Assembly: GCF_001677475.2 (NCBI RefSeq)
Contig: NZ_CP015229.1
Direction: 5' to 3' (one strand)
Source: Escherichia coli
GTDB taxonomy: Bacteria > Pseudomonadota > Gammaproteobacteria > Enterobacterales > Enterobacteriaceae
DNA length: 64,000 nt
Part shown: piece after piece, positions 14,717-14,887 of the stretch
How the letters are laid out: each line of letters begins with the position of its first letter
Numbering within the stretch: position 1 is the first letter of the stretch
The notes under the pieces: generated by a model
What the model was told of the DNA's origin: nothing
Database searches by the model: none
What the model saw: only the letters and a program-made list of their open reading frames with translations
Program-made: the position numbers and the translations under genes

Positions 14717-14887
14717 GAAAGTAACATCACGCCGTAACAACAGTGCAGTCTGTCCTGATTTTTTTAGTAACCAAATGAAAGAAAAAGATTTTTTCTTGTT
14801 CGTCGTTTTTGTTTTTTCTGGATGGTTCTGGCTGTTTTCATCATTTGTGTATTGCACTGTGTATTGCAAAAACGGGTTATAAATCAC

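Follow-up and report, generated by a model that had tools for sequence, protein, structure and literature searches.

Doubled motifs on both attachment arms of a helper-embedded satellite in Escherichia coli: sequence comparisons favor the satellite's own integrase as their reader

Introduction

A satellite inserted in a prophage terL gene, within the 64-kb stretch of Escherichia coli DNA analyzed here (the window), carries the same doubled short motif near both of its ends, which raises the question of what these repeats do and which protein reads them. The preliminary description of the window interpreted them as arm-type sites for a tyrosine integrase or a recombination directionality factor, and it named conservation of the motif in related islands as a way to check this reading. 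The same hypothesis had already been published. Tommasini, Mageeney & Williams (2023; PMC10111431) reported a doubled attP motif in helper-embedded PICIs (HE-PICIs), tgTGTATTGCantgTGTATTGCa, present as two co-oriented copies per element that lie 81 ± 2 bp upstream and 132 ± 2 bp downstream of the attP center. These authors described the motif as unique to HE-PICIs, with a fis-site PICI group devoid of it, and left the binding protein undecided between the Int arm domain, AlpA, and "some unknown DNA binding protein." Supplementary File 3 of PMC10111431 includes the site group A_Terminase_1_246 (A:Terminase_1:246), which comprises E. coli and E. albertii islands of 15–16 kb. Here, we describe the motif pairs of the window, compare them with those of related and more distant satellites, and weigh the candidate readers against each other.

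Results

The island occupies 15,409 bp (14717..30125, plus strand) and divides the terL gene of the helper prophage into a 5' part (13689..14716, plus strand) and a 3' part (30126..30855, plus strand). Alignment of both junctions with an empty terL site (L001) gave the attB sequence GGGTGAATTTTTTCACGAAACACATG and a 7-bp identity, TCACGAA, present at attL (14710..14716, plus strand) and attR (30119..30125, plus strand); the same block appears in Supplementary File 3 of PMC10111431. In silico deletion of 14717–30125 restored an uninterrupted TerL ORF of 585 aa, reading ...VNFFTKHMNVWV... In ~900 complete E. coli genomes, the left flank was matched only to ~14716, where terL is intact; 35 genomes carried the insertion. 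Based on PHROG matches and the RefSeq annotation of a relative in another E. coli genome (L002), the early genes encode a P4-like integrase, two AlpA-like proteins, a Bro-N/antirepressor-like protein, a helicase/primase-like protein, and an SSB, and the HK97-type head and packaging set is complete (capsid, protease, portal, connector, HNH, TerS, and TerL), with no tail genes. The island thus combines int, alpA, a replication module, and HK97 head and packaging genes without tail genes, as capsid-forming PICIs do, and it lies in, and co-oriented with, a prophage late gene, as HE-PICIs do; it is a helper-embedded PICI satellite of the capsid-forming kind. The satellite's own TerL shares 32% identity with the interrupted helper TerL. 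The integrase (407 aa; 14888..16111, plus strand) possesses an arm-type DNA-binding domain at residues 6–92 (nt 14903–15163). The first AlpA-like gene (16077..16310, plus strand; PHROG excisionase/regulator) overlaps the int stop, and its product shows 37–52% identity across the motif-sharing lineages, while the product of the second (16344..16652, plus strand) is closest (53%) to the fis-PICI AlpA among the AlpAs compared.

Several features of the island were noted alongside its boundaries. The int and att region of L002 is 99.5% identical to that of the window, and L002 carries a different replication gene, with a DUF927 primase (21042–23162) in place of the 469-aa helicase-like protein of the window (19927–21336); on the sequences compared, islands with int and motif in common are mosaic in their accessory and replication modules. 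At 21332–21553, just past the helicase/primase-like gene, AAAAAGTGGGG(T/A/C)GCAAAA occurs three times at intervals of ~84 bp, accompanied by overlapping inverted repeats, and this cluster is a plausible satellite replication origin because PICI origins have been reported downstream of pri (PMC10111431). Between the stop codon of the island terL and the distal arm pair, six exact copies of TAACCCGC (out of seven in the whole window) were located at 29684–29837, three on the minus strand ~21–22 bp apart and three on the plus strand 8–9 bp apart. By its sequence, this cluster looks like a group of iterons or operators, and similar "taacccgttgatattttcg" repeats occur at the right ends of EcCICFT073 and EcCIEDL933. 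A capsid-protein search of genome contigs recovered nothing beyond a 394-bp fragment and distant capsids. The Int C-terminus (residues 275–406) aligned with positions 690–811 of phrog_9, the PHROG profile for "terminase large subunit" (E = 5e-25), and "prophage terminase, large subunit (fragment)" is the name given to close Xenorhabdus Int homologs; it seems that integrase sequence from satellites inserted in terL has contaminated annotations and profiles of terminases.

The window contains four exact copies of GTGTATTGC, all on the plus strand (14847, 14859, 30023, and 30035), arranged as two tandem pairs of the same orientation with a 12-bp period in each; the letters at 14846–14868 are TGTGTATTGCACTGTGTATTGCA and those at 30022–30043 are CGTGTATTGCGCTGTGTATTGC. 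The int-proximal pair on the P' arm, TGTGTATTGCA-C-TGTGTATTGCA (14846..14868, plus strand), starts 129 nt past the attL core and stops 19 nt short of the int ATG (14888), and the int-distal pair on the P arm, CGTGTATTGCG-C-TGTGTATTGCT (30022..30044, plus strand), ends 74 nt before the attR core. The direct repeats that the preliminary description had placed about 20 bp upstream of int and about 75 bp inside the right end were therefore recovered where they had been seen. Copies of GTGTATTGC with one mismatch numbered 19 against 15.5 expected, and since this is the chance level, the exact copies alone matter. The doubled pattern GTGTATTGCNNNGTGTATTGC, with up to 2 mismatches allowed, gave two matches in the window and no match in any of 100 shuffles. 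Two possible degenerate copies in the right arm (TGTGTATCAGCA at 29992–30003 and the inverted CTGTATTGT at 30010–30018) were left uncounted because they occur at background density (~3 per kb at ≤2 mismatches) and are visible only in near-identical copies.

Comparison with the published HE-PICI motif showed agreement in every respect considered, including consensus, co-orientation, positions, terL junction, and the TCACGAA block. Both pairs matched tgTGTATTGCantgTGTATTGCa at 16/16 core positions, and the attL junction of the window had the same sequence as the A_Terminase_1_246 entries (Supplementary File 3 of PMC10111431). The distal pair finishes 78 bp ahead of the middle of TCACGAA, the proximal pair begins 133 bp beyond it, and these distances become 81 and 130 bp when the center is set at the 3' edge of the block. 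The PICI of the window does not differ materially from the A:Terminase_1:246 elements, apart from a replication module unlike that of some relatives. Because the motif, its doubling, its spacing, and the site group are all contained in PMC10111431, the motif pairs of the window are not a discovery; they are already known, down to the site group, and their detection here amounts to a correct rediscovery.

The conservation of the motif was examined in viral contigs and in loci related by their integrases. An exact-pattern scan of viral contigs yielded at least 120 stretches, many with unrelated flanks. Seven of these (L017, L026, L077, L098, L099, L104, and L123) were extended arrays in large viral contigs (218 kb in one case), built from tandem 12-bp units that include GTGTATTGC; unrelated to integrases, they fitted the pattern coincidentally and were excluded. 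Among the matches listed, 58 doubled motifs stood 12–65 nt (mostly 12–25) upstream of an Int-like ORF (M-A-x-E-N-K-L-S-D...), and these 58 ORFs represented 36 unique complete integrases in ~15–20 diverged lineages; several viral contigs had a second motif pair 8.6–11.7 kb away on the same contig. Since this set had been chosen by the motif, loci chosen by Int similarity alone were also checked, namely two capsid-E-site islands (L127 and L128), a Xenorhabdus locus (L132), a Morganella locus (L133), and the E. coli terL island L002. With up to 3 mismatches permitted in the 16 core positions, for which ~0.1 chance matches per 30 kb are expected, these loci displayed the expected pairs only, one of them upstream of int, with 0–1 mismatch each. 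The far-end pair was also found wherever the locus reaches it (L127, L128, L002, and the window), and L132 and L133, which stop short, showed the proximal pair only. Conservation in related islands thus extends over ~15–20 Int lineages with unrelated flanks and to loci chosen by Int similarity, in line with the reading of the preliminary description. P0063, considered as an outgroup, turned out to be a capsid-E-site HE-PICI integrase, and H35, a weak E. coli match, turned out to be another HE-PICI. In Xenorhabdus bovienii (L132; FO818637.1, ~9830–10000), an Int of 69% identity is preceded by an arm pair and a TCACGAA core, with no terminase gene called beside it; this locus may be an off-target insertion, of which PMC10111431 lists examples for HE-PICIs, or may reflect a decayed helper.

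A doubled design also emerged in satellites that have other motifs. The fis-site PICI L131, which lacks tgTGTATTGCantgTGTATTGCa, carries CTGTATAAACAT(T/C)TGTATAAACA on both arms, co-oriented and with a 12-bp period, and the four copies of TGTATAAAC in this 36-kb locus all fall inside the two pairs. Sixty-four stretches of viral contigs contained the fis doubled sequence, located ahead of int in several lineages that have the arm signature ADGAGLSAK...SWVFTYR, and two metagenomic viral contigs (L146, 2934–3188; L182, 2790–3044) contain a joined fis-type attP with pairs 233 bp apart from start to start, which is the excised or packaged form of a fis-type satellite. The reference PICIs EcCICFT073 and EcCIEDL933 have GGTGTAGTTAATGGTGTAGT(T/C)AAT on both arms, with GGTGTAGTTAAT as the class motif. 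The arms of P4 bear TTGGGGGCATAATTGGGGGCATCT and GTGGGGGCACAAAAGGGGGCATAT, annotated as "attP arm sequence repeat" in GenBank NC_001609. P4 resembles the window in that its core is flanked on either side by two neighboring 12-nt repeats that all share the strand of int, in a proximal pair near int (ending 15 nt before the ATG), and in the same PF13356-type family of N-terminal domain, whereas it differs in its motif (GGGGGCAT), in a gap of 185 bp versus 210 bp, in an arm domain of 29% identity, and in extra inverted repeat copies at and inside the int start. By sequence comparison, therefore, the doubled-motif design is not unique to HE-PICIs, as the fis PICI, EcCICFT073/EcCIEDL933, and P4 have doubled motifs of their own on both arms. 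No such generalization beyond HE-PICIs was found in the 2023 paper (PMC10111431).

The spacing of the pairs bears on whether they could serve mainly as transcriptional operators, governing int at the left end and, at the right end, read-out toward the terL fragment that follows, with no structural role in recombination. In reconstructed attP sequences, the gap between the pairs, taken in one register, was 210 bp in the window island, the fis PICI, EcCICFT073, and EcCIEDL933, whose three classes differ in core sequence, and 211–212 bp in the capsid-E lineage, a second HE lineage. A spacing fixed at 210–212 bp across three PICI cores of different sequence is predicted by a recombination complex and not required by a promoter, which argues against a purely regulatory role. 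The position of the proximal pair would fit an operator, as it always precedes the int start by 12–65 nt (mostly 12–25) and, in the PICI classes measured, its end lies 14–23 nt from the int ATG; arm sites overlapping the int promoter are known to repress, as in KplE1 IntS (PMC2951348). TATAAA also follows both pairs by 9–10 nt in the window lineage (14878–14883 and 30053–30058). However, this element is absent in other lineages and was not called by the promoter scan, and its reading as a shared −10 element was dropped because it is not conserved; neither a sigma-70 promoter nor a terminator was predicted at either arm. Taken with the fixed spacing, this makes a mainly operator function improbable.

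The existence of several motif classes likewise informs the suggestion that a host protein or another satellite protein, such as the Bro-N protein, binds the pairs. PMC10111431 itself raised an unidentified DNA-binding protein, but four different motifs occur in elements that all live in E. coli, which speaks against a common host factor, and the mosaic exchange of accessory and replication modules among islands with a common int and motif speaks against another satellite protein. We regard such a reader as very improbable.

Among the motif-sharing lineages, the arm domain showed 60–77% identity to the Int of the window, compared with 42–50% for the rest of the protein, and invariant positions numbered 25/70 in the arm versus 69/337 elsewhere, making the arm domain the most conserved part of Int in these lineages. 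The Int of the fis-site outgroup L131 has a body 44% identical to that of the window, similar to HE lineages, and it differs at 7/25 invariant arm positions versus 3/69 elsewhere (Fisher p = 0.003). These arm changes, including R34K and S36T (predicted strand 2), F43W (strand 3), and the loss of W58, are in or beside predicted strands 2–4. Arm-domain identity to the window Int followed motif class, with 59–73% within the class, 54–57% for fis, 46–47% for CFT073, and 29% for P4, so that the site sequence co-varies with the arm domain, the four motif classes corresponding to four arm-domain classes, although the classes are few. The integrase also has an N-terminal arm-type DNA-binding domain, together with repeated sites on both attP arms at a fixed distance from the core, as expected of a heterobivalent integrase.

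AlpA does not behave in this manner. If the pairs were bound by an AlpA-like excisionase or regulator acting as a directionality factor, bending the arms for excision and/or regulating int, the conservation of the factor would be expected to match that of its sites. Instead, the int-adjacent AlpA retained 7/73 invariant positions across lineages with an identical DNA motif, its segment aligned to the helix-turn-helix varied freely, and identity between motif classes (51–53%) was no less than that within the TGTATTGC class (39–49%), with no tracking of class. Two sites per arm would furthermore suit an Int tetramer. Directionality-factor sites usually occupy one arm in well-studied systems, which we also count against AlpA. 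Nevertheless, AlpA was named as a possibility by the discoverers of the motif (PMC10111431), and an alpA-like gene follows int in every lineage examined. PMC7498355 describes directionality-factor sites as typically consisting of direct repeats spaced by about one helical turn, with which the 12-bp period of the pairs is compatible without being specific to it. As relayed in PMC7286903 and PMC6092414, the related Vis of P4 represses Pint and is needed for excision; in EcCICFT073, by contrast, AlpA activated its own promoter and left the Pint-lacZ reporter unaffected (PMC6092414). Weighing both sides, we consider AlpA an unlikely reader of the pairs. The Int arm domain tracks motif class and AlpA does not, and these sequence comparisons favor Int.

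Discussion

We consider it probable, judging from the sequence comparisons, that the satellite's own P4-like integrase binds the four TGTATTGC(A) half-sites through its N-terminal arm domain, which would make them arm-type sites. Comparison thereby supports the integrase side of what the preliminary description and PMC10111431 had both proposed. Under an integrase reading, excision would fuse the ends of the element into an attP whose 7-bp crossover core follows the distal pair by ~78 bp and precedes the proximal pair by ~133 bp. The two pairs would then be gripped by the four arm domains of one Int tetramer, whose catalytic domains would engage the core and the terL target. Such a complex would be aided by DNA bending, probably through IHF on the distal arm and possibly through T-tracts on the proximal arm. 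A perfect IHF consensus, TATCAATCGTTTA (30075..30087, minus strand), lies midway between the distal pair and the core as a putative bend site, and IHF-like matches occur at similar offsets in EcCICFT073, EcCIEDL933, and P4; these sites are consistent with arm folding.

By analogy with other systems, Int bound to the proximal pair, 19 nt before its start codon, would probably also damp int expression. As in the window, the P' arm sites of KplE1 IntS lie directly upstream of int inside attL. In KplE1, negative autoregulation by Int results, both binding and repression have been demonstrated experimentally, and TorI sites are interleaved (PMC2951348). P4 Int has likewise been reported to limit its own expression, as relayed in PMC7286903. 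Because no sigma-70 promoter was predicted at either arm, this regulatory role is the weakest link of the proposed mechanism. The structural role has a familiar parallel in the arm-type sites of lambda Int (P1, P2, and P'1–P'3), which, as is generally known and as PMC2951348 recounts, are bound by an arm domain at the N terminus, distinct from the domains that bind the core and carry out catalysis, and lie on both arms ~70–130 bp from the core, with IHF-type bending sites between, a layout that the pairs and the putative IHF site of the window resemble.

What this study adds to the published motif is the evidence favoring Int over AlpA and the layout common to PICI and P4 clades, a modest generalization drawn from sequence. 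It appears somewhat likelier than otherwise that P4-like satellite integrases have a family-wide attP layout, comprising two plus two co-oriented arm sites that repeat every 12 bp, with the pairs separated by ~210 bp in Gram-negative PICIs and by 185 bp in P4, in which the arm sequence is clade-specific (TGTATTGCA, TGTATAAACA, TGTAGTTAAT, or GGGGGCAT) and would be read by a few residues on strands 2–4 of the PF13356 domain.

These comparisons suggest that PICI and P4 integrases in general combine a fixed geometry with an arm sequence particular to each clade. If this and the reading by the Int arm are true, they would explain how the integrase clade of the window can change its target gene, across 14 late-gene sites, while keeping one intasome scaffold. 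If a few residues on strands 2–4 of PF13356 read the motif, arm specificity would be predictable and swappable, offering a handle for re-engineering integrase specificity. If the layout is general, it would also provide a simple sequence signature for delimiting satellites, such that the ends of PICIs could be located from sequence alone.
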